Assembly (NCBI GenBank): GCA_965279135.1
Contig: OZ257133.1
Location: 475,274 to 539,273 of the forward strand
DNA length: 64,000 nt
Source: Croceimicrobium sp.
GTDB taxonomy: Bacteria > Bacteroidota > Bacteroidia > Flavobacteriales > Schleiferiaceae
Direction: 5' to 3'
The notes under the pieces were generated by a model. The model saw only the letters and a list, made by a program, of their open reading frames with translations. It was not told the DNA's origin and did not search any database. A program made the translations under genes and the position numbers. Below are positions 39,800 to 54,176 of the stretch, one piece after another (position 1 is the first letter of the stretch; each line of letters starts with the position of its first letter).

Positions 39800-41332
39800 A
39801 TGGAAGGGAACATCGATGCCGTTAACCGAGATGATGTATTTGCATTAATCGGTAACCTGGCTGATCTTGGATTGTGGAGATATCATGTGGGGGATGATTA
39901 TCTACATTGGGAGGATCAACTATTTAAATTGTATGGCGTGAACAAGGCCGATTTTTCGAATTCGTTCGAGGATTGGCGTTCCACAGTACATCCGGAAGAC
40001 CTGGAAGGGGCCGAGTCGGCATTTCTGGAATCGGTTAAATCCGACGGAGAATTCGTTTATACCTTTCGGATTCGGAGAAAGGATGATGGGCAAATCCGCT
40101 ATATAAAAGCAAATGCCAGAGTTTCATCTTATGATCAGAATGGCCAACCCATCTACATAGGGGTTAACCAGGATGTTACCGAATACTTTGAGATAAAATC
40201 CGAAAGGGAAGAGATTTTAAAAATCCTCAGTGATTCTCAAACCACCGCTCGGATAGGCAGTTGGCAATATTTCCCGAAGACCAATGTCTCAATAATGGAT
40301 GGCGTTACTAAGAGTATCTATGGTATTCCTGCAGAAGTGGAGGTACATGCTTCAGAGGGTATCCTCTACTATAAGGAGGGCAGATCCAGAGATACCATAA
40401 TCCAGGCTTTTGATAAACTATTAAAGGAGCACAAGTCCTATGATTTAGAGCTGGAATTAATTCGTACTGATGGTTCCGAAATATGGGTTCGGACCATAGG
40501 TAAGGTAATGCTTGATGAGCAGGGGGAGGTCCTTAAAGCTTATGGTGTATTTCAGGATATCACCGAGCATAAGAAACGCGAATTGGAGCTTTCCGAAGCT
40601 AATCGGATTCTACAGAATCTTACAGATAAGTTAACTGAGCAGAATCGCAGTTTAAACGATTTCGCTCATATCAGTTCCCATAACCTTCGCGCTCCGGTTG
40701 CCAATCTCATGATGTTGAATGAACTCTATGCCGAGTCCGAAGATCTCCAGTTTAGGGAAGAGATTTTTGAGATGGTCTTGAGTTCCACCAAAGACCTCAA
40801 GAGCACCTTGGATCACCTCTTAGATTCTCTGGTTATTCAAAGCAAAGCAGGCTTGGATATGAAGGATTGCAGTTTGAGTGATGCGCTTGATCTGGTGGAC
40901 AGTAGTTTATCCGAAATCGTAAAACATACCGAGGCGAAAATTGAGAGAGAGATTGAGGTTGACACGCTACATGCTCAACCGGTTTACCTGGATAGTATTC
41001 TCCTCAACCTGATTAATAATGCGATTAAGTACAAACATCCGGATCGCAAACCGGAGATTTTAGTTCGCTCCTATATGGATGGACCCAGACCTTGTATTGA
41101 AGTGAAGGTCAATGGACTGGGGATTGACCTGGAGAAACACGGCGGGAAGGTATTTGGATTACACAAGACCTTTCACAAAAACTCTGATGCGAAAGGAGTG
41201 GGTCTATTTATGGTAAAAGCGCAAATGGAAGCAATGGGCGGAGAGGTTTCGCTGAAAAGTGAACCCAATAGTGGGAGCACCTTTAAGATGACTTTCAAAT
41301 CAATTGAAGCGGGAAGGGATGGCAGTTTATAA
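39800..41332 (+). CDS. PAS-domain sensor histidine kinase
   Basis: Two PAS-like blocks, HisKA FAHISSHNLRAPV, N-box LLNLINNAIKY, G2 GVGLFMVK. Start at ATG 39800 (track TTG at 39770). Confidence 0.85.
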   Translation: MEGNIDAVNRDDVFALIGNLADLGLWRYHVGDDYLHWEDQLFKLYGVNKADFSNSFEDWRSTVHPEDLEGAESAFLESVKSDGEFVYTFRIRRKDDGQIRYIKANARVSSYDQNGQPIYIGVNQDVTEYFEIKSEREEILKILSDSQTTARIGSWQYFPKTNVSIMDGVTKSIYGIPAEVEVHASEGILYYKEGRSRDTIIQAFDKLLKEHKSYDLELELIRTDGSEIWVRTIGKVMLDEQGEVLKAYGVFQDITEHKKRELELSEANRILQNLTDKLTEQNRSLNDFAHISSHNLRAPVANLMMLNELYAESEDLQFREEIFEMVLSSTKDLKSTLDHLLDSLVIQSKAGLDMKDCSLSDALDLVDSSLSEIVKHTEAKIEREIEVDTLHAQPVYLDSILLNLINNAIKYKHPDRKPEILVRSYMDGPRPCIEVKVNGLGIDLEKHGGKVFGLHKTFHKNSDAKGVGLFMVKAQMEAMGGEVSLKSEPNSGSTFKMTFKSIEAGRDGSL

Positions 41333-41723
41333 TATCTATGTGATCGATGATGATCCGATCTATCAGTTTTCCTTTAAAAGTCTACTGGGGCTTTTAAATC
41401 AAAGCTTTAACGTCCAGCAATTCCACAATGGGGAAGAGGCAATTGAAGCACTTAAGGAATGTGATAAGTCCAAAATCTGTTTTCCAGACTTCATTTTTTT
41501 GGATTTAAACATGCCGGTTATGGATGGTTGGAATTTCCTGGATGAGTTCCGAGAGCATTTTAGTGAATCAAATAATCTGCCCCGAATCTATATAGTATCC
41601 AGTTCCCTCCATCATGAGGATTTGTTGCGTTCCGAGGCCTATCCCATTGTGCAAGAGTATCTGGTAAAGCCTATTTCACGCATTAAGCTTTCCCGACTTT
41701 TTGAACCAGCAGAAATAGATTAG
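41319..41723 (+). CDS. single-domain response regulator (receiver only)
   Basis: YVIDDD, FLDLNMPVMDG and LVKP. Overlaps the kinase end by 14 nt. Confidence 0.85.
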   Translation: MAVYNIYVIDDDPIYQFSFKSLLGLLNQSFNVQQFHNGEEAIEALKECDKSKICFPDFIFLDLNMPVMDGWNFLDEFREHFSESNNLPRIYIVSSSLHHEDLLRSEAYPIVQEYLVKPISRIKLSRLFEPAEID

Positions 41724-41781
41724 TAGAATTTGACTTATGGTTTAGATTACCTTAAGTATATTGTGAGCATAATTCCTGATT

Positions 41782-43383
41782 ATGCGTATTTCAATATTCT
41801 TCCTTTTTCTTTCGATTGGTTTAAATGCTCAAAGCCTTCAAGATGACTTTGAAGGTAATGGCAATATCAATACCTGGTTTGGCGATGATTGCAATATTGA
41901 TATTGCTAAGGCGAACCCATTTTCACAAAGCATTAATACTTCATCTACCGTATTGGAATACCACGATATTGGTGGTCAGTATGCCAATGTACGTTTTGAT
42001 GCTTCGAGCAATTTAAACCTGCCGAGCCATTCTGTTTTTCAGATTAAGGTCTATGTTCCCTCTTCTGGATTAACCGGAAACCAGAACAATCAGATATCCT
42101 GTAAACTGCAAGATGGTACTCAAGGCAGTCCCTGGCAAACGCAGTGTGAGATTATCAAATCCGTTCAATTGGATCAATGGCAAACCATCACTTTCGATTT
42201 TGCAAATGATCCATATATCAACTTGGATCCAACTTCTCTGGCACCAACCCAGCGAACCGATTTTAATCGGGTGCTGTTTCAGTTAAACGGAGAGAACAAT
42301 ACGGACCAAGTTTTGGCCTACCTGGATGATTTCATCTATCTCGATACCAGCTTTTCTCCACCGGCCCCGGTATTTACTCAATTGCTTTGGTCAGATGAGT
42401 TTAATGGCAGTGGGATGATTGATACATCCAAATGGTTCCATCAAACTCAATTACCCAACGGGAATTCCTGGTACAATGGCGAAATCCAGCATTATACGGA
42501 TCGAGCTGCTAATAGCTCCCAGAGTAATGGCAGCTTAAAGCTTATTGCCAAAAAGGAAACCTTTACCGATCAGGGCGTAACCAAGAATTATACTTCGGCA
42601 CGATTAAATTCGAAAATTGCTTTCACCTACGGTCGAGTTGAGATTCGGGCTAAGATGCCGACAGGTGTAGGCACCTGGCCAGCGATGTGGATGTTGGGCA
42701 AGAACATCGACGAACCCGGAGCCTACTGGCAGCAACAGGGATTTGGAACCACCCCCTGGCCCGCTTGTGGCGAGATTGATATCATGGAGCATTGGGGCAC
42801 CAATCAGGACTATATACAAAGTGCTATGCATACCCCATCGAGTTTTGGAGGGACGGTCAATAAAGGTGGTCGCCTCATCCCAGGAGTTTCCGACAACTTC
42901 CATGTTTATGCTTTCGAGTGGTATCCCGATCGGATGGTTTTTTCGGTGGATAGTATTGTCCACTATATTTATCAGCCCAGTGTCCGCGACGCCAGCACCT
43001 GGCCCTTTGATGATCCCCAATACCTATTGCTCAATATCGCCATCGAGCCAGGCATAGACCCTAATTGGCAAGAAGATACTTTAGAGATCGACTATTTGCG
43101 AATCTATACTGCTCCCAATATTGGCAATACAGAGTTCCAACCCGAAAGCGAATGGTCTATCTATCCCAATCCGGTTAAGGACCAAATCCATTTGTCAATA
43201 CCTGATGCTTACACCTCACCTTTAACGGTCGAGATCTATAATGTCAATGGAAAGCTCGTTCGCCAAGAGATTCTCGAGGATTCAACCATTATTCAAAATC
43301 TTGCTGATCTGGATTCGGGTGTTTATCTGTTACGGGTGGTTTCAGATCAGGGGCTTGTAATCAGGAGGTTTTTGAAGGGCTAG
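41782..43383 (+). CDS. secreted GH16 beta-glucanase (laminarinase-like) with an N-terminal CBM-like domain and a T9SS C-terminal domain
   Basis: GH16 catalytic motif GEIDIMEH. C-terminus IYPNPVKDQIHLSI... Confidence 0.85.
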   Translation: MRISIFFLFLSIGLNAQSLQDDFEGNGNINTWFGDDCNIDIAKANPFSQSINTSSTVLEYHDIGGQYANVRFDASSNLNLPSHSVFQIKVYVPSSGLTGNQNNQISCKLQDGTQGSPWQTQCEIIKSVQLDQWQTITFDFANDPYINLDPTSLAPTQRTDFNRVLFQLNGENNTDQVLAYLDDFIYLDTSFSPPAPVFTQLLWSDEFNGSGMIDTSKWFHQTQLPNGNSWYNGEIQHYTDRAANSSQSNGSLKLIAKKETFTDQGVTKNYTSARLNSKIAFTYGRVEIRAKMPTGVGTWPAMWMLGKNIDEPGAYWQQQGFGTTPWPACGEIDIMEHWGTNQDYIQSAMHTPSSFGGTVNKGGRLIPGVSDNFHVYAFEWYPDRMVFSVDSIVHYIYQPSVRDASTWPFDDPQYLLLNIAIEPGIDPNWQEDTLEIDYLRIYTAPNIGNTEFQPESEWSIYPNPVKDQIHLSIPDAYTSPLTVEIYNVNGKLVRQEILEDSTIIQNLADLDSGVYLLRVVSDQGLVIRRFLKG

Positions 43384-43485
43384 GGAGGTTTTTCTTTGAT
43401 GATTGCTCTTGTCACTCTCCCGAAATGGAAAGGGTGTGGAGGAAGCGGTTTTGGAGGAGGATATCTATATATCCTTTTAAAATGT

Positions 43486-43791
43486 TCAGCTATGAATCTT
43501 TTGATGGCACGGTACACAAACTGACTCTAGCCAATCAATGGGTTCTTTTCCGATGTTGATCTTCGCATATCGTTTGTGATGCACTTGGGTGGCTCTTGCT
43601 CCGCAGTGTACACATTTCCAGTTGTCTCTTCGAAGCACCACATATCTTTTTCTTTTCCAGGCATCACTTTTCAAGTAAACATTTCGGTAATAGTCTCGCC
43701 TCTTTTTTCTTTTGTATTCAAACCGCAGTCGTTTGATATAATACCAAAGGCCAGTGATTGAAAGTATTACTATTACTGGAAGCCAATTCAT
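43486..43791 (-). CDS. small HNH endonuclease with an N-terminal TM helix
   Basis: MNWLPVIVILSITGLWYYI (TM helix), then YLKSDAWKRKR...CVHCG...VHHKRY...CVPCHQKIH. Confidence 0.7.
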   Translation of the reverse strand: MNWLPVIVILSITGLWYYIKRLRFEYKRKKRRDYYRNVYLKSDAWKRKRYVVLRRDNWKCVHCGARATQVHHKRYAKINIGKEPIDWLESVCVPCHQKIHS

Positions 43792-44010
43792 TGGATTCTA
43801 TGGTTAGAATGAAAAGTAAGTTAGGCCACATTGTAGTCTTTTAAGCTAATCTTGCCTACTAAATCAGGTATTCTACTGTGGTCTTCCGAAATCCGTTGGT
43901 AATTAATGTGTTATTAATGGTCATTACAAGCTTTATTTTGCTGGGGAAAGGTATTGGAACAATTTTTAATCCAATTGTTTTCTCCATTGAGTAGATTTCT
44001 GAAAAGCTGT

Positions 44011-44223
44011 CTAAGCTACCGTATGGATCTTCTTAGTTTTAACATTATTGTTTTTAAAACAAAGCCAAAATCCTTTTTGGTACTCAAACTCCTTTGCCTT
44101 CTCAAATAATGACATTTCTTTAATGATAGTTCATTAGTCATAATAATAAACAAAGCCATGGCTGAATTTATATCCTTCACTGCTTAAGCCTTCTTCAATA
44201 GCTTTAATGAAGAAAGGGTTCAT
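44011..44223 (-). pseudogene. possible decayed parD/parE-like toxin-antitoxin remnant (short overlapping ORFs)
   Basis: 29-aa ORF MNPFFIKAIEEGLSSEGYKF... resembles a ParD C-terminus. The adjacent frames ...LSLFEKAKEFEYQKGFW... resemble a ParE N-terminus. This is a weak impression. Confidence 0.25.
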
Positions 44224-44329
44224 TTTTAGCCTATTTTAGGTGAATAACCATTGGAAGAACCTACTAGGTAGTTACATAAAGTCATTCTTTGAATAGCAAT
44301 AGAGTTAGTCATTTTTTATTTAGCCTGAA

Positions 44330-45400
44330 CTATATTGGCCAATAGATTTTTCGTAATGGGACTAAGGCCTTAACTTCTGGTGCAAGTGTTTCATAGTTAT
44401 CGACAAGTAACTCCGCTAGGAGTTCAAAGTCTACTAGAGTGATGGGGAAATTAGCCCTTTCCGCTTCGTATTTGGCATCTTGAGTGAAGCCTGTGGTGGA
44501 TACGTAAATCCCCTTCTCGATATTTCTTAAGCCACCAATGAAATTTCGTAACTCTGGTGCAGAGACTTTCTCTTTACTCTGGCTTTTGTGTTTAACTTCG
44601 GCTTTAATCCTAGGTTCTAACATACCTAATCCGTCAGGGGAAGCATGTATATCACTTCCTAAATCTCTAACTTTTGGTGTCAATCGGCTCTTATAGCCCA
44701 TTGCAGTTAGAATTCCAGCAACAAGTTTTTCAATTTGGTTGGAGTCTAATTCAGCTATCGAATCTTGAATAAAGTCAATAGATCGCGCGACTACCTCTTC
44801 TCTTATCCGATCCTCTTGTTCTTTCTCGAATTCTTTTATGGATTCATCCTCATGTTGTTTCAATATTGAAACCTGCTCAGCGAACTCTTCTTCAGAAATA
44901 TATCCTGGGTGGGCGGCTCTAATTTCATTAAACACTTGCTCTGGTATTTCGAAAAGGGTTAAAATTGAACCTAGTATGTTTTTTGATTCAGGAGTGAGTT
45001 GATCTCTATCAATTGGATACTCATTCCATTCGACCTTTCTGAAATGGTGAAATTTGTAGGAAGTATTATATCCATAGTCCGAAATTATTTCACCAAAGTA
45101 GTAACATCTACTATCGGTATCATAGGTGACAATATTGTGCCCTTCTTTTATTTCATCAATGAACCTCCACATTTGACCTGAACTTTGATTTAATCGTCCA
45201 GGTGAAAACTCAGGATATGAGGATTGAAGTCTTTTCTTTAAATCTTTGTACTTCGTTTTTCTGGAAATTTTACCTGTTTCATTCCATCCTAAAGCGCAAA
45301 TGCCTTTATCTAAAAATTCATGGAGTAAAAAGCTTCCTTGCCCGGATCTTACCATCCATGCTTTGGGTTTATTTGATTGATTCATAGTTTTTATGACCAT
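44330..45400 (-). CDS. Mrr-cat (PD-(D/E)xK) restriction endonuclease-like protein with an uncharacterised ~170-aa N-terminal domain
   Basis: C-terminal LVAGILTAMGY...GSDIHASPD...KAEVKHK (D...ExK) ...GIYVSTTGFT. N-terminal AWMVRSGQGSFLLHEFLDKGICALGW. The alternative start is at 45385. Confidence 0.75.
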   Translation of the reverse strand: MVIKTMNQSNKPKAWMVRSGQGSFLLHEFLDKGICALGWNETGKISRKTKYKDLKKRLQSSYPEFSPGRLNQSSGQMWRFIDEIKEGHNIVTYDTDSRCYYFGEIISDYGYNTSYKFHHFRKVEWNEYPIDRDQLTPESKNILGSILTLFEIPEQVFNEIRAAHPGYISEEEFAEQVSILKQHEDESIKEFEKEQEDRIREEVVARSIDFIQDSIAELDSNQIEKLVAGILTAMGYKSRLTPKVRDLGSDIHASPDGLGMLEPRIKAEVKHKSQSKEKVSAPELRNFIGGLRNIEKGIYVSTTGFTQDAKYEAERANFPITLVDFELLAELLVDNYETLAPEVKALVPLRKIYWPI

Positions 45401-45977
45401 TATATTTGGAAAGCAAAATTCTAGTTAACACACTTCCTAATCGTTGCGTTTTATTGCAATGCATCTATATTGGTTATGGCTATTTGTTTAACCAGATAGT
45501 AAGCGCGCCAGAACTCATTTTAATAAAATCCTATTTAAGATTAGGCTAAATTGCGAATTGATCTAGTAAGTAGTCGAAAATACTAAGGATTTATAAGCTT
45601 TTCTATTTGAAGCCAATCAAGATTCTTCTGAATCTTAACTAGAAAATCTTTATGTGATTCATGGGGTACTACAAATTATGAAAACTCAATTTAAAAACTT
45701 AAATAACTCTACTCTAGAGCTTAAGATTGAGATTATCGGATTTAAATCAAGCTATTTTAAATTAATCGAGAAATTTTAATCCTAAGGAAGTTTAACCCAA
45801 TCCGCTTCAGTACTGAACTTCCAACCACCAAATATTTAAAGGCTTCTTATTGGAGCAAACTCGTTTCAATTCTTCTATCCTAAGACGTTTCGATCAGCTT
45901 TGGGAGTAGCTTCACTGTACCCAAGCTAGTTCTTAATGCCAAGGATATCATCCTCTTCTTTTTTCCGAAGCTCAGCT

Positions 45978-46217
45978 CTATAACAACCTTTTCCTCAAAA
46001 ACGCTCTTCCCGATCCGCTTTTTAAATACTTCTCAAAGAGAAAGGCCTTATACTTTTCATCAAAAACCAAATAGGTAATAACTTTTATTGGACGGCGATA
46101 GCTAGTGGATTTCACTCTCCCGGAATTGTGTTGCTCTATTCGTCGATGCAAGTTTTTGGTGCAACCCGTATAAACAGTCCCGTCAGTGCATTTAGCGATG
46201 TAAACATATTGTTTCAA
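45978..46217 (-). CDS. small GIY-YIG (URI-domain) nuclease family protein
   Basis: YVYIAKCTDGTVYTGCTKNLHRRIEQHN. TTG start. Confidence 0.75.
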   Translation of the reverse strand: MKQYVYIAKCTDGTVYTGCTKNLHRRIEQHNSGRVKSTSYRRPIKVITYLVFDEKYKAFLFEKYLKSGSGRAFLRKRLL

Positions 46218-46370
46218 GGATCATAGTTTGCAGGTAAGATAACTGGGGTGTAACTATTTTATGACCCTGACCAATTGAAAAACGTTTCCATAGTGGACTT
46301 GGACGTTTTCAGCATCGCTCTTTAGCGAGTATAGAAGGTAATGGCATGTATTGTAGAGTACTGTGAGGTA

Positions 46371-46877
46371 TCTCTGCCGAAGTTCGTGTGTGGGTATAGT
46401 TTAATGTGAGCGAGCTCGCCGTCGCTCCTTCATGGGATATCGGAGCTATGGCGAGCGAGGGGATTTGGTGAAGAAACTTCGCCGAAGCTTGTGGGTAGAT
46501 ATGGTTTAAAGTGAGCGATCTCGCCGTCGCTCCTCAAAGGTTTTGGGAGCTTTTGCGAGCAGGGGAATTAGAGTGGAGTGCCTCCGCCGAAGCTTGTGAG
46601 TGGGTATGGTTTAAAATGAGAGAAGCTCGCCGTCGCTCCTCAATGTTTTCGGAGCTTTTGCGAGCAGGGGATTAGAGTGGAGTGTCTCCGCCAGAGCTCG
46701 TGAATAGGTATGGTTTAGAACTAGAGAAGCTCGCCGTCGCTCCTCAATTGATTTCGGAGCTATGGCGAGCGAAGAATCAGGTGGAGAAACTCCGCCGAAG
46801 CTTGTGGATGGGAATGGTTTAGAATGAAAAAAGCTCGCCGTCGCTCCTCAATTAATTTCGGAGCTTTGGCGAGCGAA
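46371..46877. repeat. tandem array of ~4.8 units of a 104-106-bp repeat, each with an imperfect 15-nt-arm hairpin
   Basis: The core GCTCGCCGTCGCTCC occurs at 46414, 46519 (variant), 46625, 46729 and 46833, each followed by GGAGCT(A/T)T(G/T)GCGAGC. Confidence 0.95.
46827..46874 (-). terminator. tmRNA terminator (the repeat copy nearest ssrA, and the only one keeping a T6 tract)
   Basis: On the minus strand: GCTCGCCAAAGCTCC-GAAATTAATTGA-GGAGCGACGGCGAGC followed by TTTTTT. Confidence 0.7.
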
Positions 46878-47278
46878 GGTGGAGCTGCGGGGAGTCGAAC
46901 CCCGGTGCAAACAAGGAAGTGGAAGGCTTTCTACATGCTTATTTTGTTATTCGATTGTCGACTAGCATCTGGGAACAAACACCCCAATACTAGCTTAGTT
47001 GCGGATTACAGTGTCGCGGGCATTACGCAACGCACTACCCGTTAGTCCAGATTTAATGACACCCCTGAGTCCAAACCATCTAGACTTAGGTTCGGAGGGA
47101 TGACTTGCTCTCGCGTCTTACGCGTAGATTAGCTCAAAGCCTCATCAGAGTGCTTAGGCGGCAAGTGCGAAGTTATTTTCGCCAATTATAATTTGAAGCA
47201 TCTTTTTTACGGGAGACATCTCCATGTCCCGACATGCTTACATTCGACTTCATCTTGCTGTCGAAACCGATCAGCCCC
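46878..47278 (-). ncRNA. ssrA: transfer-messenger RNA (tmRNA)
   Basis: 5' end GGGGCTGATCGGTTTCGACAGC. Tag reading frame GGC GAA AAT AAC TTC GCA CTT GCC GCC TAA = GENNFALAA* (47154-47183). 3' end CGGGGTTCGACTCCCCGCAGCTCCACC. Confidence 0.95.
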
Positions 47279-47343
47279 AAATGTGAAAGAACAAAAGAAA
47301 AAGGCCTGCAATTTAGGTATCTTTACCCGAAATCATCCATTCT

Positions 47344-48549
47344 ATGAAGATCGGAATCATCCGTGAAGGAAAGAATCCACCTGATAAACGCGTTCCCCTC
47401 AGTCCTCAACAATCACTACAATTATTAAGCCAATATCCTGATCTGCAAATAGCTGTTCAGCCAAGCCCGATCCGCTGTTTCAAGGATCAGGAGTATGCCG
47501 AATTAGGTCTTTCACTTGAAGAAGATTTGTCAGATTGCGATGTGCTTCTGGGGGTGAAAGAGGTTCCCATCGAAATGTTGATTCCTAACAAAACCTACCT
47601 CTTCTTTTCTCATACCTACAAGAAGCAGGAGTATAATCGAGATTTACTCCGAGCAATCCTGGATAAGAAAATTCGCCTTATTGACTATGAGATGCTTAAA
47701 GACCCGGGAGGGAAAAGACTACTAGGTTTTGGTCGCTATGCGGGAATAGTGGGTGCTTACAATGGTTTTCGGGCCTATGGGAAAATGACCGGTAGTTATG
47801 ATCTTAAAGCCGCTTATGAATGTCTTGATCGGCGTGAGTTAGAACAAGAATTAGTCAAAGTGCTACTTCCCGAAAACTTCCGTATTGCCTTAACAGGAGC
47901 AGGTAAGGTGGCTGGCGGGGCGATGGAGATTCTTTCCGCCCTTAAAATTACTCAGGTTTACCCTGATGAGTTTATTCGGGAAGACTTTAATCGAGAAGCA
48001 GTTTTCACCCAACTAAATGTGCACGACTATTTTGAGCGGGTTGACGGAACCGAGTTTAAACGATTGGATTTTTATCGTGATAATTCCGGCTATCAATCGC
48101 GCTTTTTAGAATATGCCGAGCATGCCGATATGTATATCGCTTGTCATTATTGGGCGGAAGGTTCACCATTCATATTCAGCCGGGAAGAGGCTCGCGATCC
48201 TCGCTTCAATGTGAAATTGGTGGCCGATATTTCCTGCGATATAGATGGACCGGTAGCCAGCACTTTAAGACCTTCCACTATTGCTGATCCTTTCTATGCT
48301 TATGACCCCGTTCAGGAAAAGGAAGTAGAGTTTGGTACAAAGGGCAGCATTGCGGTTAGCGCTGTAGATAATCTCCCGGGAGAATTACCCAGGGATGCAT
48401 CCGAAGACTTTGGAAATGAGCTGATAAAACACATCATCCCGCAGTTTTTTAATGGAGATGAGCAGCGCATTTTAGCGCGAGCTAGTGAGACTAATCTTCA
48501 AGGTGAGCTTACTGAGTCCTTTTCCTATCTCGATGATTACGTGAATTAG
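47344..48549 (+). CDS. AlaDH/PNT-family dehydrogenase (saccharopine / lysine-ketoglutarate reductase-like)
   Basis: MKIGIIREGKNPPDKRVPLSP... and the Rossmann motif LTGAGKVAGGA. Confidence 0.6.
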   Translation: MKIGIIREGKNPPDKRVPLSPQQSLQLLSQYPDLQIAVQPSPIRCFKDQEYAELGLSLEEDLSDCDVLLGVKEVPIEMLIPNKTYLFFSHTYKKQEYNRDLLRAILDKKIRLIDYEMLKDPGGKRLLGFGRYAGIVGAYNGFRAYGKMTGSYDLKAAYECLDRRELEQELVKVLLPENFRIALTGAGKVAGGAMEILSALKITQVYPDEFIREDFNREAVFTQLNVHDYFERVDGTEFKRLDFYRDNSGYQSRFLEYAEHADMYIACHYWAEGSPFIFSREEARDPRFNVKLVADISCDIDGPVASTLRPSTIADPFYAYDPVQEKEVEFGTKGSIAVSAVDNLPGELPRDASEDFGNELIKHIIPQFFNGDEQRILARASETNLQGELTESFSYLDDYVN

Positions 48550-48584
48550 GCATTTCGACTAAATTTGCCCCCCAATTTGATGGA

Positions 48585-49421
48585 ATGAGTACGGCCCCTG
48601 CCAAGTACATAGAAATTGAAAAAGTGATAGCTGAGAAGAACCCTACTTTGGCCAAATGGCTTCCGGGTTTCATCGTACGCTATATCAAAAAGATCATTCA
48701 CCAGGAAGAGATCAACGCAGTGATGCTAAAGCACGGGGAAAAGCGTGGACTTCCATTTGTAAGGGCGGGTTTAGACTTTTTAGAAACTACTGTAAAAACA
48801 GTGGGGCTGGAGAACGTACCTAAAGATGGAGGCATCATTCTGGCTTCTAATCATCCCTTAGGCGGTTTAGATGGTATTGCTTTCATGAAAGCGGTGGGTG
48901 AGGTTCGAGAAGACATCCAATTCCTGGTTAATGATATACTGCTTAACATCAAAAACTTGGAGCCTCTTTTTATTCCGGTGAATAAGGTTGGTGCAAATCC
49001 CAGGGCAGCATTGAAAGTGATTGAAGAGACCTATGCCAGAGATATTGCCGTATTAGTTTTTCCATCTGGTATGGTAAGTCGCAGATTACCAGATGGTATT
49101 GGTGATTTGGAATGGCAGAAAAGCTTTATCGCTCGATCAAAGAAGTACAAAAAGGATATTATTCCTGTACATATTGATGGTAAAAATTCCTCCTGGTTCT
49201 ATAATCTTTCCCATTGGCGCAGTAAATTAGGCATCAAAGCCAATTTGGAAATGTTTTACCTCGCAGATGAGATGTTCAAACAAAGAGGTAAGACGATTAC
49301 CATAACTTTTGGTGAACCTGTTTCCTGGCAAAGTTTCGATAAGTCGAAAAGCTTGGTAGAGTGGGCCGAGCACATGCGCAGTTTAACCTATGCCTTGCCT
49401 GAAAAGTATAAGGATCGATGA
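48585..49421 (+). CDS. lysophospholipid (PlsC-family) acyltransferase, glycine-lipid O-acyltransferase-like
   Basis: NHPLGGLDG (HX4D-type motif), FPSGMVSR. Coupled to the downstream N-acyltransferase. Confidence 0.7.
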   Translation: MSTAPAKYIEIEKVIAEKNPTLAKWLPGFIVRYIKKIIHQEEINAVMLKHGEKRGLPFVRAGLDFLETTVKTVGLENVPKDGGIILASNHPLGGLDGIAFMKAVGEVREDIQFLVNDILLNIKNLEPLFIPVNKVGANPRAALKVIEETYARDIAVLVFPSGMVSRRLPDGIGDLEWQKSFIARSKKYKKDIIPVHIDGKNSSWFYNLSHWRSKLGIKANLEMFYLADEMFKQRGKTITITFGEPVSWQSFDKSKSLVEWAEHMRSLTYALPEKYKDR

Positions 49422-50389
49422 AGGATATTATAAATCCGGTTAACCGGGAAGCTATCATAAGTGAACTTACGGAAGAGAACTTCCTAACTAATACCTCAAA
49501 AGGTGGCAATCAGCTCTATTTGGCTGATCATCGCCATGCTCCAAACATGGTTCGTGAGATAGGTCGACTTAGAGAAGTGGCCTTTCGTACCGCAGGTGGA
49601 GGAACAGGCAAGGAGCTTGACCTTGATCAATATGATTTAAGTCCAGATCATCCCTATCAGCAATTGATCGTTTGGGATCCGGAAGATCAAGAGATTCTGG
49701 CGGGTTATCGGGTTTTAAAATGTATTGATGGAGAACGTGATGAGAATGGAAAGCTAAAATCGGCTACTAGTAAGCTCTTCAAACTTTCGGATAAGATGGT
49801 GGAGGAGTTTTTACCGATCACAGTGGAGCTGGGTCGATCTTTCGTGCAGCCCAAGTATCAGCGCACTGCTCCGCGTAAAAGCATTTTCGCATTGGATAAC
49901 CTTTGGGATGGTCTAACAGCCTTAATGTTGGATGATCCTAATCTGGAGTACATGTTTGGGAAAGTAACCATGTACCCTCATTTTAATCGCGAGGCACGCA
50001 ATATGATACTGGCCTTTATGCGCCACTATTTCCCTGATCCCGATGGACTAGTACGTCCTCGTGAAGCTTTGGTAGCGGAGGAGCTCTTAAAGCCGCACTT
50101 CGCTCTATTTGAAGGACTGGAGTATAAGGAAGGTCGAAAGGCTTTAGCGGCAGAGATGAAACTTCGGGGGGAGTCTATTCCGCCATTGATTAACAGCTAT
50201 ATGTCCCTCACCACTACAATGAGGAGTTTTGGAACCGCTCTAAACCCAAACTTTGGAGAAGTGGAAGAAACCGGTATTCTAATCAAGTTTAGGGATATCG
50301 ATCCCGCTCGCTTAGATCGCTATATGGGCAATTTCAAGGACAATTCAGAGTATCGCGGACCTTTCTATGTTCCTGCTACTGAGGCTTAG
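49418..50389 (+). CDS. GNAT/hemolysin-like N-acyltransferase (OlsB/GlsB-like amino-acid lipid synthase)
   Basis: LREVAFR...GGGTGKELDLDQYD and ELGRSFVQPKYQ. Confidence 0.7.
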   Translation: MKDIINPVNREAIISELTEENFLTNTSKGGNQLYLADHRHAPNMVREIGRLREVAFRTAGGGTGKELDLDQYDLSPDHPYQQLIVWDPEDQEILAGYRVLKCIDGERDENGKLKSATSKLFKLSDKMVEEFLPITVELGRSFVQPKYQRTAPRKSIFALDNLWDGLTALMLDDPNLEYMFGKVTMYPHFNREARNMILAFMRHYFPDPDGLVRPREALVAEELLKPHFALFEGLEYKEGRKALAAEMKLRGESIPPLINSYMSLTTTMRSFGTALNPNFGEVEETGILIKFRDIDPARLDRYMGNFKDNSEYRGPFYVPATEA

Positions 50390-51033
50390 TGTTGCTTCAA
50401 TTCCTTAATCGTAGCGATAGGATCTTCAGATCGAAAAACAAAGCTTCCGGCTACTAAAACATCAGCCCCAGCTTCGATTAGCCGAGGTGCATTGTCATTA
50501 TTCACCCCACCATCAATTTCAATAAGGGTTTTACTGCCAGCAGAATCAATCATAGCCCGCAGGCTTCTCACCTTATCATAGGTACGTTCAATAAAAGCCT
50601 GACCGCCAAATCCGGGATTCACGCTCATCATACATACCAAATCGATATCCTGAATAACATCCTTCAATACTTCTACCGGAGTATGGGGATTTAGGGCCAC
50701 CCCTGCTTTCATACCAGCTGCTTTAATTGCTTGTAAGCTTCGGTGCAGGTGGGTGGAAGCTTCATAATGTACTGTAAGGACATCAGCCCCAACATTTTTA
50801 AAATCTTCAATATAGCGTTCGGGCTTCTCAATCATCAGATGTACATCGAGCGTTTTGGTTGCTACTTTATTAATCCCGGCAATAACCGGAAGTCCGAAGG
50901 AGATATTAGGAACGAAGAGCCCATCCATAACATCGAGGTGAAACCAATCTGCTGCACTTTCATTAACCATTTTACAATCGCGTTCCAGATTAAGGAAATC
51001 GGCGGCAAGAAGACTCGGTGCAATAAGGGCCAT
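50386..51033 (-). CDS. rpe: ribulose-phosphate 3-epimerase
   Basis: IAPSLLAADF, HLDVMDG, MSVNPGFGGQ. ATG at 51033 (the track start at 51051 is TTG). Confidence 0.92.
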   Translation of the reverse strand: MALIAPSLLAADFLNLERDCKMVNESAADWFHLDVMDGLFVPNISFGLPVIAGINKVATKTLDVHLMIEKPERYIEDFKNVGADVLTVHYEASTHLHRSLQAIKAAGMKAGVALNPHTPVEVLKDVIQDIDLVCMMSVNPGFGGQAFIERTYDKVRSLRAMIDSAGSKTLIEIDGGVNNDNAPRLIEAGADVLVAGSFVFRSEDPIATIKELKQH

Positions 51034-51055
51034 AGCGTAAATTTTGGGCAAAACT

Positions 51056-51086
51056 AAAAAACCCCGACGCTATGGTCGGGGTTTTC
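51056..51086 (-). terminator. rho-independent terminator after rpoD
   Basis: CCCCGAC-GCTATG-GTCGGGG with A/T tracts on both sides. Confidence 0.75.
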
Positions 51087-51106
51087 TATACATTTTGTGA
51101 GATCTA

Positions 51107-51970
51107 TTAACCTAAATAGGTTTTCAAAATCTTACTTCTGGAAGTGTGTTTCAATCTGCGGATCGCCTTTTCCTTGATTTGACGTACACGCTCGCGGGTG
51201 AGATCGAATTTCTCGCCAATTTCTTCGAGGGTCATTGGGTGTTGTCCACCTAATCCAAAGTAAAGACGTACCACATCACCTTCTCTTGGGGTCAATGTGG
51301 CTAAAGAACGCTCAATCTCGGTACGCAAAGAGTCCTGCATTAGCGTGTCATCAGGGTTAGGACTTTCACCTGTGTTCAATACATCATACAGGTTGCTGTC
51401 TTCACCTTCTACCAATGGTGCATCCATGGAGATATGACGACCACTATTACGCATGCTCTCCTTCACATCGTTTTCACCCATTTCAAGGTTGTCCGCGATT
51501 TCTTCAGGAGAAGGTGCACGTTCGTGCTCCTGTTCTAGTTGCGCATAAGATTTATTAATCTTATTGATCGAGCCGATCTTATTGAGTGGCAAACGCACAA
51601 TTCGCGATTGCTCAGCCAGGGCTTGCAGGATACTTTGACGAATCCACCATACGGCATAGGAAATGAATTTAAATCCGCGAGTTTCATCGAAACGTTGGGC
51701 GGCCTTTATTAATCCGAGGTTTCCTTCGTTAATTAAATCCGGCAGGGTTAATCCCTGGTTTTGATATTGCTTGGCCACAGAAACCACAAATCGAAGGTTG
51801 GCCTTGGTTAACTTTTCCAAAGCTACCTGATCACCAGCCTTGATACGTTGTGCCAACTCTACTTCCTCCTCGGCAGTAATCAAGTCTACTTTACCGATTT
51901 CCTGAAGGTATTTGTCGAGCGACGCCGTTTCACGGTTGGTAACCTGTTTTGTGATCTTTAACTGTCTCAT
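51107..51970 (-). CDS. rpoD: primary RNA polymerase sigma factor (sigma-70 family)
   Basis: Regions 2-4: [15 protein letters not shown] and [24 protein letters not shown]. Confidence 0.93.
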
Positions 51971-52022
51971 TGGCTACAATAAAAATTAGAATTCGTTTTT
52001 AAATAACTGAAAAGCCAGAGTT

Positions 52023-54176
52023 TTAGTTTTCGCTCTGCTCTTGCTTAGGCTTTTCCTGGCGTTCTGGTTTTGGCAATAACACTTTGCGGGAAAGCTTAAG
52101 CTTACCGCGGTCATCTTTACCAATTAGTTTTACTTCAACGCGCTCTCCCTCTTTCAACACTTCGTCTACTGTTTTCAAGCGACGGTGCTCAATTTCGGAG
52201 ATGTGTAATAGTCCATCTGTTCCCGGAGCTAATTCTACAAAGGCGCCGTAAGGCTGAATGGAGCGAACCAATCCATTGTATACTTCTCCAACTTCAGGTA
52301 CAAAAGCGATCTCTCGGATACGCGCTTCAGCTTGAGCCATTTTAGCAGCATCAGTGCCACTGATTTCAATGATACCGAAATCACCTTCCTCTTCAATAGT
52401 GATGGTAGTCTCTGTATCAAGCTGCAATTTTTGGATATTCTTTCCTCCTGGTCCGATGATCATTCCAATGAAGTCTTTTGGAATCTTCATCATATTCAAT
52501 TTCGGAGCATGAGGCTTAAGTTCGGTACGAGGAGCATCGATGGTCTTCAACATCTCACCTAAGATGTGCAAACGGCCGGCGTTAGCTTGCATCAAAGCTT
52601 TTTCGAGAATCTCATAACTCAATCCGCTAATCTTGATGTCCATCTGACAAGCAGTGATACCTTTTTCAGTACCGGTAACTTTGAAGTCCATATCACCTAA
52701 GTGGTCTTCATCACCCAGGATATCACTTAATACCGCGTAATTGCCAGTCTCATCAGTGATCAATCCCATAGCAATCCCTGAAACAGGAGCCTTGATTTTG
52801 ATACCCGCATCCATAAGAGCCAGGGTTCCGGCACATACGGTGGCCATAGAAGAAGAACCGTTAGACTCAAGGATATCTGAAACTACGCGAATAGTGTAGA
52901 AGTTATCTTCAGGAACAATGCCTTTTAGAGCACGTTGGGCTAGGTTACCATGTCCCACCTCACGACGGCTGGTACCACGAATTGGACGGGCCTCACCAGT
53001 AGAGAAAGGAGGGAAGTTATAATGAAGATAAAAGCGCTCTGAACCACTAAAGGTTACATTATCGATACGGTTTTCATCTAATTTACTTCCTAAGGTAACG
53101 GTGGTTAAAGACTGAGTTTCTCCACGAGTAAACACGGCTGAACCATGCGTTGAAGGGAGGTAATCAACTTCGGTCCAGATTGGACGAATTTCATCGAGTT
53201 GACGGCCATCTAAACGCTGACGATCATTTAAGATCATATTACGCATGGCGTGGTACTCCACATCATGGTAATAGGTCTTAATTAATCCCGATTTTTCTTC
53301 GAGCTCTTCTTCACTGAAGTTAGCCTCCATGTATTCATCACGAACGGCTTTGAATTGCTCAGAGCGTTGTTCTTTGCTCAAGCCACTTTTAGCAACTTCG
53401 AACACCTTGTCATAGAGGTCGCTCATGATTTTTTCGCGAAGCTCTTCGTCATGAGTCTCGTGGCTGTACTCACGTTTTACCGCAGCCTTTTCCACTTTCG
53501 CTGCTAAATCTAGCTGCGCTTGAACCTGAACTTTAATCGCTTCGTGAGCAGCTTGAATTGCCGCTAGCATCTCTTGTTCAGAGATTTCATCCATTTCTCC
53601 TTCCACCATCACCACACTGTCGGCAGTAGCTCCAACCATCATATCGATGTCAGACTCTTCCATCTGAGCGGTACTCGGATTAATAACGAATTCGCCATTT
53701 ACGCGAGCTACGCGAACTTCAGACATTGGTCCATTAAATGGAATATCCGAAACAGCAATTGCAGCAGAAGCGGCTAAACCGGCTAGTGCATCCGGGCGTA
53801 CGTTTTGGTCCCAGGAGTTTAAGGAAATCATCACCTGAACATCAGCGTGATAATCCTTAGGGAAGAGTGGACGTAATACGCGGTCAACTAAGCGCATTAC
53901 CAGAATTTCCTCATCACTTGGACGAGCCTCTCTCTTTATAAAACCGCCAGGCATACGGCCTGCGGCAGAAAATTTTTCGCGATAATCTACAGTAAGTGGC
54001 AAGAAATCTACCCCCTCCATAGCTTCTTTATTGGAAACTACAGTCGCCAACAACATGGTATCTCCCATGCGAACCATTACCGAACCGTCCGCTTGCTTAG
54101 CTAACTTCCCGGTTTCGATGGTAATGGTTCTCCCATCTGCTAATGTTATTTCCTGCGTAATTACGTTTGGAATCAT
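52023..54176 (-). CDS. pnp: polyribonucleotide nucleotidyltransferase (PNPase)
   Basis: Two RNase PH domains, a KH domain and an S1 domain ([18 protein letters not shown]). Confidence 0.95.

Follow-up and report, generated by a model that had tools for sequence, protein, structure and literature searches.

Five tandem hairpin modules behind a Croceimicrobium tmRNA gene and their recurrence with GIY-YIG nuclease genes at tRNA-type gene ends

Comparison with other genomes shows that the repeats directly behind the tmRNA gene (ssrA) of this Croceimicrobium genome are five diverged tandem copies of a module that elsewhere forms the non-coding leader of a cassette. The module combines a long interrupted hairpin (HP1) with a 7-bp hairpin (HP2); it lies directly behind tmRNA, tRNA-Ser, tRNA-Ala or tRNA-Asp genes and is followed by a gene for a GIY-YIG nuclease (UPF0213) of about 78 amino acids. 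It occurs in Flavobacteriales, Cytophagales, Bacteroidales, Saprospiraceae and CPR bacteria, and the combination of module and nuclease gene is undescribed in the literature and family libraries searched. We put the chances at a little better than even that this is a horizontally spread cassette at tRNA-gene ends whose leader module was amplified here, a reading in which mechanism and function are what we infer.

The array at the tmRNA 3' end

Within the window (the whole 64-kb stretch of DNA analysed), ARAGORN places the tmRNA gene at 46878–47278 on the minus strand (tag GENNFALAA), and Rfam RF00023 matches it over its full length with 146 bits. Its 3' bases, ...GCAGCTCCACC, adjoin the first unit, so that the array begins with the very next base behind the gene. 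As delimited by Tandem Repeats Finder, a repeat search and an alignment of the units, the array occupies 46362–46877 on the same strand, its 5'→3' direction leading away from ssrA. It comprises five head-to-tail units (U1–U5) of 98–105 nt with pairwise identities of 72–86%; Tandem Repeats Finder alone reports 46372–46876, with a period of 104, 4.8 copies, 81% matches and a score of 538. The core GCTCGCCGTCGCTCC starts at 46414, 46519 (one mismatch), 46625, 46729 and 46833, and the 64-kb window has no further copy of it apart from its own complementary arm; none of 100 shuffles reached its count.

The first-pass annotation of this DNA had described five tandem repeats of about 105 bp at the tmRNA 3' end, and these are real by Tandem Repeats Finder, by unit alignment and by independent assemblies. 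Logan contigs of four runs (X1, X4, X5 and X6, from two studies and under two organism labels) carry an identical array sequence with no variants or alternative joints, and X2 and X3, compared over 40000–54000, likewise show no variant. Since the same array emerged in assemblies of two independent studies, an assembly artefact, which the annotation had named as a possible undoing of its claim, is ruled out. All runs containing the array are DNA (uniform depth of 1500–1900x, or long genomic contigs). Copy number did not vary among the available assemblies, which counts against the reading we prefer. The annotation was also right that this is no CRISPR array: unique spacers are absent, and the units are homologous over their whole length. 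A coding repeat was rejected in view of the period of 98–105 nt with indels and of plus-strand ORFs that are only spurious.

In U1 (46780–46877, minus strand, 98 nt; fold −30.6 kcal/mol, z −3.8), TTC is followed by HP1 (46833–46874, beginning 3 nt past the tmRNA end), a run of six T (T6, 46827–46832), a spacer and HP2 (46780–46796, GGCGGAG-TTT-CTCCACC). The other four units lie on the same strand. U2 (46676–46779, 104 nt) has an HP1 with perfect stems (46729–46770) and an HP2 at 46676–46692 (GGCGGAG-ACA-CTCCACT), and U3 (46572–46675, 104 nt) an HP1 with one outer-stem mismatch (46625–46665) and an HP2 at 46572–46588 (GGCGGAG-GCA-CTCCACT). U4 (46467–46571, 105 nt) carries two outer-stem mismatches in HP1 (46519–46560); in its HP2 (46467–46483, GGCGAAG-TTT-CTTCACC) a G-C pair has become A-T, with both sides changed. 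The stems of HP1 are again perfect in U5 (46362–46466, 105 nt; HP1 46414–46456), in which HP2 (46362–46378, GGCAGAG-ATA-CCTCACA) has decayed and was missed by our HP2 model. The long interrupted hairpin that had been proposed for each unit is thus formed by all five (fold z-scores −2.2 to −3.8), although not without the outer-stem mismatches of U3 and U4. A second motif said to be in every unit, GTGGAG-NNN-CTCCGCCGAAGC, is present in four and degenerate in the fifth, and the suggestion that the short hairpin echoes the tmRNA 3' end holds, as CTCCACC recurs in HP2.

HP1 gives every one of the five units a stable GC-rich stem-loop, that of U1 standing right 3' of a transcribed gene, as in an intrinsic terminator. 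A T-tract right behind the stem is found in U1 only; U2 to U5 read TTCTCT, TTCTCT, TCGCTC and TCGCTC, as the first-pass annotation had seen for both the ssrA-adjacent and the distal copies. HP1 and T6 of U1 are predicted to be the intrinsic terminator of ssrA. U1 escaped a simple terminator scanner, whose limit on loop length it exceeds.

The units are old (14–28% diverged), and the similarity among them is mosaic. The window units differ by 4% in HP1 stem columns and by 28% in the other columns (p about 1.5e-4). Constraint persists on the distal HP1 copies, so these are probably binding or structure sites rather than terminators. Unit junctions are inexact, with 6–9 extra nt ahead of HP1 in U2–U5 (TGATTC, CTAATCCCC or AAATCCCC). 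Both this inexactness and the age of the units speak against the preferred reading. Between the array and the next ORF lies a unique stretch of 144 nt (46218–46361, minus strand), in which we read a weak A/T-rich hairpin followed by T5. The GTCCACT within it may be what is left of the 3' arm of an earlier HP2, a tentative reading because the HP2 model has no match there.

Recurrence of the module with a GIY-YIG gene

The ORF beyond this stretch (45978–46217, minus strand, the strand of ssrA) has a TTG start and encodes a stand-alone GIY-YIG nuclease of 79 amino acids. It matches Pfam PF01541 (E 3e-14) and the UPF0213 structures 1zg2_A (BH0048; E 8.6e-10) and 1ywl_A (EF2693; E 1.5e-5), and by sequence it is a member of the UPF0213 / COG2827 family, to which SLX1 is distantly related. 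We found 1823 homologues. V5, Y6, Y16, G18, R26 and E62 are invariant across 15 of them, and the window ORF keeps the catalytic-type residues of the GIY-YIG domain (Tyr, Tyr-x-Gly, Arg, Glu). A separate DNA-binding domain, as expected of a homing endonuclease, is absent: the 79 residues are the catalytic domain alone, a point against our preferred reading. PADLOC gave no match of the ORF to a known defence system, and our literature search found nothing that links GIY-YIG, YhbQ or UPF0213 with tmRNA or tRNA ends or with a hairpin leader. The first-pass annotation had not linked the array to this ORF.

Across cassettes the order of parts is the end of the tRNA-type gene (...N73-CC), TTC, HP1, an A/T-rich spacer, GCGAGCT(A/T)CGG, HP2 and the GIY-YIG ORF. 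HP1 is a GC-rich interrupted hairpin, usually with a T-tract next to it; GCGAGCT(A/T)CGG runs into HP2, a 7-bp hairpin with the consensus GGYGGAS-NNN-STCCRCC that in most loci precedes the start codon by 10–100 nt. Genomes have from one to about six modules, and arrays of two to six recur across independent lineages. Module and ORF follow the tmRNA gene in Aequorivita capsosiphonis (L001), in an Aequorivita MAG (L002; period 133, 2.7 copies, the later units without the HP1 5' arm) and in a Flavobacteriaceae MAG (L004; period 138, 1.8 copies). Metagenome loci carry the module behind tRNA-Ser (L007, with a truncated second cassette), tRNA-Ala (L008), tRNA-Asp (L009, where the nuclease gene has hairpins on either side) and tmRNA (L012 and L013). 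An exact-pattern scan of 185,579 genomes found one locus per genome, at ssrA. Six further matches to the hairpin pattern (L003, L005, L006, L010, L014 and L015), without an HP2 match or a tRNA, were set aside as GC-rich chance matches. The draft genome of the Aequorivita capsosiphonis type strain has a gap of 902 N exactly beside ssrA.

We also sampled from the protein side, without bias towards the hairpins, by looking up 12 clusters of nuclease homologues. Eleven follow closely on an intact tmRNA gene (among them L016, L018, L023, L025, L027 and L029) or tRNA-Ser gene (L019, L030, L033 and L035), always on the strand of that gene. The twelfth (L026) stands behind a displaced tRNA 3' fragment, with six modules and also an integrase. 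Displaced gene ends of 13–17 nt are found at L012, L007 and L026, and L016 has two 165-nt units, each with a 16-nt copy of the tmRNA end at its end.

Both hairpins show compensatory changes. In the outer stem of HP1, 96% of cells are paired, four of seven pairs are changed on both sides and 0 of 500 shuffles scored as high. HP2 has 91% of cells paired, a figure inflated by our filtering of its instances for at least 6 of 7 pairs; the filter does not inflate the both-side changes, found at three of seven pairs and again unequalled in any of 500 shuffles. The 3' arm of HP2 repeats the last 5–7 nt of the tRNA-type gene ahead of it: TCCAC after tmRNA and tRNA-Ala, TCCGC after tRNA-Ser and CCCGC after tRNA-Asp. 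Every HP2 found has this match except that of U4 in the window, which is one base off, within its compensated pair change. Four lineages have a 5' arm that mismatches the target through a C.A pair, their 3' arm being a match. When 210 kb were searched with an HP2 covariance model, matches lay in these leaders only, with none elsewhere in the 64-kb window. HP2 as part of a coding N-terminal extension, in frame at L013 and L008, was rejected, as L029 has an in-frame stop before the start codon.

The cassette appears to have spread horizontally. GIY-YIG proteins of CPR bacteria and Bacteroidota are 57–66% identical and interleave in clustering, and one CPR locus shares the non-coding 17-nt motif GGCGAGCTACGGCGGAC, letter for letter, with one from Saprospiraceae. 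The second, truncated cassette at L007 points the same way, as does an organism C (below), whose sequence behind the tmRNA differs from that of the window. Blastn of the array against 50,697 phage records gave no match, none of 2.9 million viral contigs contains the hairpin pattern, and an origin of the array from a phage attP site or prophage was rejected accordingly. Relatives of the protein number six weak ones in phages and two on viral contigs, with none on plasmids, which again weighs against the preferred reading. Such near-absence from phage, plasmid and viral-contig collections means that no vector is known; the borders of the cassette and its mobility are what we infer. Its linkage to tRNA-type genes could also stem from a shared cellular function and not from selfishness.

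Growth of the array and comparison with known systems

In the reading we favour, the whole cassette would be a selfish, horizontally transferred element living at tRNA-type gene ends. Transcription of ssrA would be terminated by the gene-adjacent HP1 and T6, in place of the native terminator displaced by the cassette, and the proximal HP1 would probably also restrict read-through into the nuclease gene. Every module would be bracketed by the same direct repeat of 6–9 nt, supplied by the tmRNA end or by an HP2 3' arm. Through slippage of replication or unequal recombination from one such repeat to another, modules would be gained or lost as a whole, possibly stimulated by breaks made by the neighbouring nuclease. 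Gain and loss of this kind would account for module numbers of one to about six, for the mosaic units and for direct repeats that match the gene end.

Slippage of the terminator region had been the first of three explanations offered by the first-pass annotation. As a route of growth, amplification via a short direct repeat remains the most likely; as a private affair of ssrA it fails, the module being present in many genomes. A plain local duplication of the ssrA terminator, with the GIY-YIG gene a coincidental neighbour, would fit the tandem head-to-tail order, the bracketing 7-nt repeat and a T-tract kept by the proximal copy only. We consider it very unlikely, and largely refuted by the comparative loci: in distant phyla module and ORF occur together behind tmRNA genes and several tRNA genes, independent lineages have arrays of their own, and the distal HP1 copies are constrained. 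The second explanation, that the units are stacked remnants of integrase-borne islands that integrated at the ssrA 3' end and were then excised or decayed, draws on a classic integration site (PMC4383910; PMC3146451), on real cases in related loci (L016, L012, L007 and L026, the last with its integrase) and on the variable islet that flanks ssrA in the window. The displaced 3' part of a gene is typically at least 15 nt long and reaches into the T-arm, but the window repeats only 6–7 nt, CTCCAC(C/T), and never a T-arm part; this copy forms an arm of a conserved hairpin, one that loci with a single module have too, and the three islet ORFs scanned with Pfam (43486–46217: HNH-like, Mrr-like and GIY-YIG) have no integrase or recombinase domain. 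We regard stacked scars as highly improbable here.

The third explanation was an array of structured decoy or sRNA units transcribed by read-through from ssrA. We widen it to units that act as RNA after transcription either in this way or within the 5' leader of the nuclease mRNA; they could be processing signals or stabilisers, could pair with the tmRNA 3' end as a sponge or decoy, or could control translation of the nuclease gene. The compensatory changes in both hairpins, the HP1 stems kept in all five units (four of them without a T-tract), the place of HP2 shortly ahead of the start codon in most loci and the potential of its 5' arm to pair with the tmRNA 3' end would suit such roles. However, a strong hairpin and T6 stand ahead of U2–U5, so low read-through is expected. 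Metatranscriptome contigs cover the tmRNA only, that of a near-identical tmRNA ending at 46884 without entering the array; Rfam 15, at the gathering threshold and at E up to 10, matches the tmRNA alone and nothing over the array; and terminators and DNA hairpins would be expected to show compensatory changes equally. We think an RNA array improbable. In a further alternative, likewise improbable in our estimation, HP1–HP2 is a small non-autonomous mobile unit on which the GIY-YIG protein acts in trans: it would insert immediately 3' of TCCRCC, read via the complementary 5' arm of HP2 in the manner of IS200/IS605 elements, which read their target through a guide adjoining a subterminal hairpin. 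With a fresh TCCRCC at the end of every inserted unit, further rounds of insertion would build head-to-tail arrays. This would fit an HP2 whose 5' arm complements and whose 3' arm equals the gene end at three kinds of end, the target copy that closes each unit, and a module start that is constant (CC|TTCGC) behind many different genes. An imperfect inverted repeat is formed by the left end, TCCACC-TTC-GCTCGCC, in which the gene end is included, with the right end, GGCGAGC-TAC-GGTGGA, and the hairpins have GAA loops or internal loops, features with which hairpins are very stable as single-stranded DNA. The inexact junctions, with even the HP1 5' arm missing from later L002 units, tell against such insertion, as do the guide arm that mismatches its target by C.A in four lineages where the 3' arm matches, the position of the ORF outside the unit and the single locus per genome in place of many dispersed copies. 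Transposase action, moreover, is not known for GIY-YIG enzymes.

A bolder, likewise improbable idea is that unit and GIY-YIG gene together form an unrecognised mobile or self-amplifying element, whose bare nuclease is aimed by a nucleic-acid structure and not by a protein domain. HP2 would then hold a copy of the target together with its complement, so that target choice would be encoded by the element and could be rewritten as it moves, for example from the tRNA-Ser-type TCCGCC to the tmRNA-type TCCACC. Each inserted or amplified unit would recreate the target, and the HP2 forms with a C.A mismatch would be snapshots of recent retargeting.

The closest precedent that we found is the GIY-YIG homing endonuclease SegB, which drives tandem amplification of a tRNA-containing segment via microhomology (PMC13096335). 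The free-standing Seg-type endonucleases of phages T4 and T6 resemble the cassette in having a GIY-YIG gene beside tRNA-type genes, a segment multiplied in tandem between short homologies (PMC13096335), a small promoter-poor gene behind a strongly transcribed RNA gene, and an apparently patchy distribution among relatives. Unlike Seg enzymes and I-TevI, the cassette protein is a bare UPF0213-type catalytic domain of 77–79 amino acids with no DNA-binding domain; the cassette resides in the chromosomes of Bacteroidota and CPR bacteria, with hardly any counterpart in phages, and what it amplifies is a non-coding two-hairpin module and not a tRNA with a nuclease gene. Genomic islands also integrate in tRNA and tmRNA genes, leaving displaced 3' fragments (Islander, PMC4383910), and ssrA islands of Dehalococcoides have tandem direct repeats (PMC3146451). 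The cassette shares with them its position exactly at the ssrA or tRNA 3' end, recurring copies of the gene end and variable, defence-rich DNA downstream, but in the window the three islet ORFs scanned include no integrase, the cassette's repeats are only 5–7 nt long, as one hairpin arm, and it measures 0.4–0.9 kb with a single nuclease gene.

As intrinsic terminators go, the proximal HP1 and T6 have the classic anatomy, and in most single-module loci HP1 is followed by a T-tract; yet four of the five window copies keep their stems without a T-tract, and, unlike ordinary terminators, HP1 has a stem sequence and TTC/GAA flanks that are conserved from phylum to phylum. REP/BIME elements with their RAYT enzymes and IS200/IS605 elements form clusters of GC-rich imperfect palindromes just downstream of genes, reach hundreds of copies and are associated with an HUH/Y1 transposase. 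Like these and their hairpin-only derivatives, the module places GC-rich palindromes behind genes, flanks a nuclease gene with hairpins at L009 and, as regards IS200/IS605, brings to mind a target read by pairing beside a hairpin. It differs in occupying one locus per genome, in an enzyme that is a GIY-YIG nuclease and in a site that is strictly the end of a tRNA-type gene. The 64-kb window has no copy outside the array, and near the array we found neither an HUH/Y1 transposase (TnpA) nor RAYT, the only adjacent enzyme being the GIY-YIG nuclease. The dispersed REP/MITE-like family unrelated to ssrA, against which the first-pass annotation had cautioned, is therefore not what we see: the module is dispersed among genomes and tied to tRNA-type gene ends.

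The UPF0213-type GIY-YIG family, widespread and with solved structures, has no known role and here gains a concrete, testable setting through its strict association with tmRNA and tRNA 3' ends and with a conserved hairpin leader that matches the target. Recurrent assembly gaps and changes in copy number beside ssrA are explained by the module. Should the hairpin turn out to direct the nuclease, a minimal enzyme would be aimed at its DNA site in a new manner.

The variable islet beyond the cassette

Variable defence and toxin-antitoxin genes tend to sit just past the cassette, which may mark or help to create a recombination hot spot at a well-known integration site. In the window the rest of the variable islet extends over 42922–45977, as context rather than as an established part of the cassette. 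It includes a Mrr-like candidate defence gene (44330–45400, minus strand; Pfam, and PADLOC PDC-S02 with E 2e-74) and an HNH-like ORF (43486–43791, minus strand; Pfam). The same place in organism C spans 9.8 kb, compared with 3.96 kb in the window; there the tmRNA is about 88% identical and the flanking genes are the same, and the sequence right behind the tmRNA, of which only 30 nt are readable, is different. In organism D, the start of HP1 is present behind the tmRNA.

A five-unit array at the 3' end of ssrA

Tandem Repeats Finder placed the array at 46372-46876, with a period of 104, 4.8 copies and 81% matches. Its 15-nt core lies at 46414, 46519, 46625, 46729 and 46833, matches elsewhere in the 64 kb only its own complementary arm, and had its count equalled in none of 100 shuffles, together confirming the five tandem units described in the first-pass annotation; a second motif was found in four units. 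Since the full-length tmRNA gene occupies 46878-47278 on the minus strand (ARAGORN and Rfam), the array starts at the first base after ...GCAGCTCCACC (minus strand). Unit alignment divided it into U1 (46877..46780), nearest the tmRNA gene, U2 (46779..46676), U3 (46675..46572), U4 (46571..46467) and U5 (46466..46362), all on the minus strand and with pairwise identities of 72-86%. Two sequencing runs covering 40000-54000 were concordant with the window, and contigs of four other runs from two studies carried an identical array, with no variants, alternative joints or visible copy-number variation. An assembly artefact, raised earlier as a possibility, is therefore excluded. We also considered and rejected a CRISPR array, in agreement with the earlier view, as the units are alike along their whole length and leave no unique spacers.

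Read on the minus strand, each unit opens with TTC or a 6-9-nt variant leader, followed by a long interrupted hairpin (HP1; GCTCGCC-AWA-GCTCC, an 11-13-nt loop, then GGAGC-GAC-GGCGAGC), a tail, an A/T-rich spacer in which TAAAC is invariant, and a 7-bp hairpin (HP2), where AGCTTCGG leads into GGCGGAG-NNN-CTCCAC(C/T). The tail is T6 in U1 only and TTCTCT or TCGCTC in the other units, bearing out the observation that the T-tract is limited to the ssrA-proximal copy. The HP2 3' arm is identical to the final 7 nt of the tmRNA gene; the short hairpin does echo the tmRNA end, as had been noticed. All units fold as predicted (z-scores -2.2 to -3.8), and in U4 a G-C pair of HP2 has become A-T, with both bases changed. 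Judged from their sequence, the distal HP1 copies cannot be ordinary terminators, yet they are constrained, as HP1 stem columns were 4% different among the five units versus 28% for all other columns (p ~1.5e-4).

A GIY-YIG cassette at tRNA-type gene ends

On the same (minus) strand as the array, 145 nt past U5, a 79-aa ORF (45978-46217) encodes a stand-alone GIY-YIG domain (Pfam, E 3e-14) of UPF0213 type (PDB 1zg2, E 9e-10). An exact-pattern scan for HP1, with one genome per species, gave matches only at ssrA, in Aequorivita capsosiphonis, an Aequorivita MAG and a Flavobacteriaceae MAG; at these three loci, tandem modules (HP1 plus HP2) of period 133-138, with HP2 in the form GGTGGAC-GCR-GTCCAC(C/T), are followed by the same small ORF. 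The two MAGs hold 2.7 and 1.8 module copies, respectively, and in the type-strain draft of A. capsosiphonis (DSM 23843) a 902-N scaffold gap inside the post-ssrA module array (L001 6645-7546) suggests several more units, beyond short-read resolution. A relaxed-pattern metagenome scan recovered the module directly 3' of tRNA-Ser, tRNA-Ala, tRNA-Asp and tmRNA genes, again followed by the ORF. These placements speak against a dispersed REP/MITE family unrelated to ssrA, which we rejected for the module given its single locus per genome in the exact-pattern scan. At tRNA-Asp (L009/L011), 80-520 nt past the gene end, the GIY-YIG ORF has HP1-type hairpins on both sides and is likewise preceded and followed by an HP2 that fits the tRNA-Asp end (CCCGC), a layout unlike that of other loci.

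Homologues of the ORF number 1823 (57-73% identity) and come from Cytophagales, Saprospiraceae, Bacteroidales, Roseivirga and CPR bacteria. Genomic placement was examined for 12, chosen from the protein side, and 11 of these have, just upstream and in the same orientation, an intact tmRNA gene (loci L016, L018, L023, L025, L027 and L029) or tRNA-Ser gene (L019, L030, L033 and L035). All but one of the 11 loci have an HP1-like hairpin beginning CC|T(T/C/A)CGC and HP2 ahead of the start codon; the exception, L025, has the HP1 hairpin and no recognisable HP2. The twelfth, in a Saprospiraceae MAG (L026, 1-2000), shows the order integrase gene, displaced tRNA-Ser-like 3' fragment (1306-1335), modules and GIY-YIG ORF, its six tandem modules alternating between two types. 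Modules thus range from 1 to about 6 per locus, and the five-unit array of the window is one case of a recurrent feature. Comparison across loci showed that this array consists of multiplied copies of the leader module of a cassette that is joined to the ends of tRNA-type genes.

Covariation analysis, which the first-pass annotation had proposed, showed both predicted hairpins of the module to be conserved structures. In an alignment of 20 stems, 96% of cells of the HP1 outer stem are paired, with double-sided changes in four of seven pairs; across 20 HP2 hairpins, 91% of cells are paired, a percentage inflated by the filter needing 6/7 pairs with which instances were picked, and three of seven pairs carry double-sided changes, which that filter leaves unaffected. 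For HP1 and HP2 alike, the observed pairing score was reached in 0/500 shuffles. HP2 was also shown, in its base sequence, to track the end of the adjoining upstream gene: its 3' arm reads TCCAC at tmRNA and tRNA-Ala genes, TCCGC at tRNA-Ser and CCCGC at tRNA-Asp, a match true of every HP2 found save that of U4 in the window, which is one base off within its compensated pair change. Four lineages, including the window, keep a GGCGGA 5' arm and hence a C.A mismatch; other lineages have a compensating GGTGGA. In 210 kb (window and loci), matches to an HP2 covariance model were confined to these leaders, with none in GC-rich control loci or the rest of the window.

We rate the whole as a candidate nuclease cassette that occupies the ends of tRNA-type genes and has a hairpin leader both matched to its target and open to amplification. 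It resembles the free-standing genes for GIY-YIG homing endonucleases beside tRNA genes, but their DNA-binding domain is absent from the cassette protein. Integrase-borne tRNA/tmRNA islands (PMC4383910, PMC3146451) share the cassette's address, but their integrase and long displaced fragment are absent from it. The module is not among the families of Rfam, and a link of GIY-YIG/UPF0213 proteins to tmRNA or tRNA ends is undescribed in the literature searched, a scope that stopped short of subscription journals.

Origin of the array

On balance, we slightly favour a composite explanation, in which amplification of the cassette's leader module is combined with a terminator function, exchange between repeats and a role for the nuclease. 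The proximal HP1 with its T6 would have come with the cassette and would act as the terminator of ssrA. Modules would be gained and lost through slippage or unequal recombination between bracketing 6-9-nt direct repeats, formed by the gene end and the HP2 3' arm (in Aequorivita the repeat reaches TCCACCTTC), and exchange between these repeats would also maintain their match. Repeated exchange is supported by mosaic sharing among units, with an HP2 loop common to U1 and U4, a tail to U2 and U3, and a leader to U3 and U4. The adjacent nuclease may promote module gain and loss by analogy with the GIY-YIG endonuclease SegB, which stimulates such events for a tRNA segment of phage T6 through microhomology (PMC13096335). 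Part of an earlier interpretation, slippage of the terminator region, is retained here as probable slippage or recombination between repeats; plain duplication of the terminator beside a coincidental neighbour gene is contradicted by the comparative loci, and we regard it as very improbable.

A module that inserts serially, guided by its hairpin, would fit the target-complement logic and the recreation of the target by each unit, but the inexact unit junctions, mismatched 5' arms and single locus per genome make this unlikely. We consider it about equally unlikely that the array acts as RNA: a strong predicted terminator precedes U2-U5, which speaks against read-through, and a metatranscriptome contig that covers a near-identical tmRNA ends at 46884. 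Least probable are the stacked integration and excision scars once suggested at ssrA, a reading that fails because only 6-7 nt of the tmRNA end recur in the window and none of the three islet ORFs scanned with Pfam has an integrase domain. True integrase-type scars are present elsewhere (L016, L012, L007 and L026).

At L016 (Cytophagales MAG), two tandem ~165-nt non-coding units (2438-2770) lie between tmRNA and module, each closing with the terminal 16 nt of the tmRNA, copied exactly (ATCCCACCGGCTCCAC); they represent true insertions of a different element, stacked at the end of ssrA. The minus strand of L012 (1432-1558) shows a further small insertion at this point: between the tmRNA and a 13-15-nt copy of its end, after which the module follows, lie 125 nt of inserted sequence that carry a terminator of their own.

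Spread, turnover and the variable flank

Interleaved proteins, a shared motif, a truncated copy and flank differences are apparent signs of horizontal spread and turnover of the cassette. CPR and Bacteroidota proteins are intermixed in clustering at ~60-66% identity, and a 17-nt non-coding motif, GGCGAGCTACGGCGGAC, is the same in one CPR locus and one Saprospiraceae locus. L007 carries, on its minus strand ~340-600 nt past the end of tRNA-Ser, a second cassette that is truncated and retains part of HP1, HP2 and the first ~60 nt of the ORF; beyond it stands a 17-nt copy of the 3' end of tRNA-Ser (AATCCCTCCTTCTCCGC), displaced from the gene. A syntenic relative, organism C (run X12), shares both flanking genes and ~88% of the tmRNA, yet its post-tmRNA sequence is unrelated over the 30 nt read. 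Positions 42922-46878 of the window form a variable islet, flanked by ssrA and by a GH16 gene (41782-43383) whose product carries a type IX secretion sorting domain, and its length before the next shared gene is 9.8 kb in organism C versus 3.96 kb in the window. Similarity among three Aequorivita genomes ends directly past the ORF stop codon. The cassette may mark the inner border of a hot spot for recombination. Hardly any relatives occur in collections of phages, plasmids and viral contigs.

The islet also holds an HNH-like ORF (43486-43791) and an Mrr-like gene (44330-45400) matching the candidate defence family PDC-S02 (E 2e-74). Defence or toxin-antitoxin genes are often next beyond the GIY-YIG ORF, as in L018 (3319-6273), L023 (3453-6237) and L027 (2795-4354), whose neighbours are an MmeI-like restriction-modification enzyme, a type I restriction-modification system, and HigB with Fic. 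On a CPR contig (L035, 1-1139), further genes of mobile elements share the cassette-bearing tRNA-Ser, which is preceded by a LAGLIDADG-like ORF and the final part of a serine recombinase gene. In Roseivirga (L018, 2370-2420), a doubled GCTCCTTCGCTGAAGC motif with a TTCGC/GAAGC flavour like that of the module hairpins lies shortly before the tmRNA gene.
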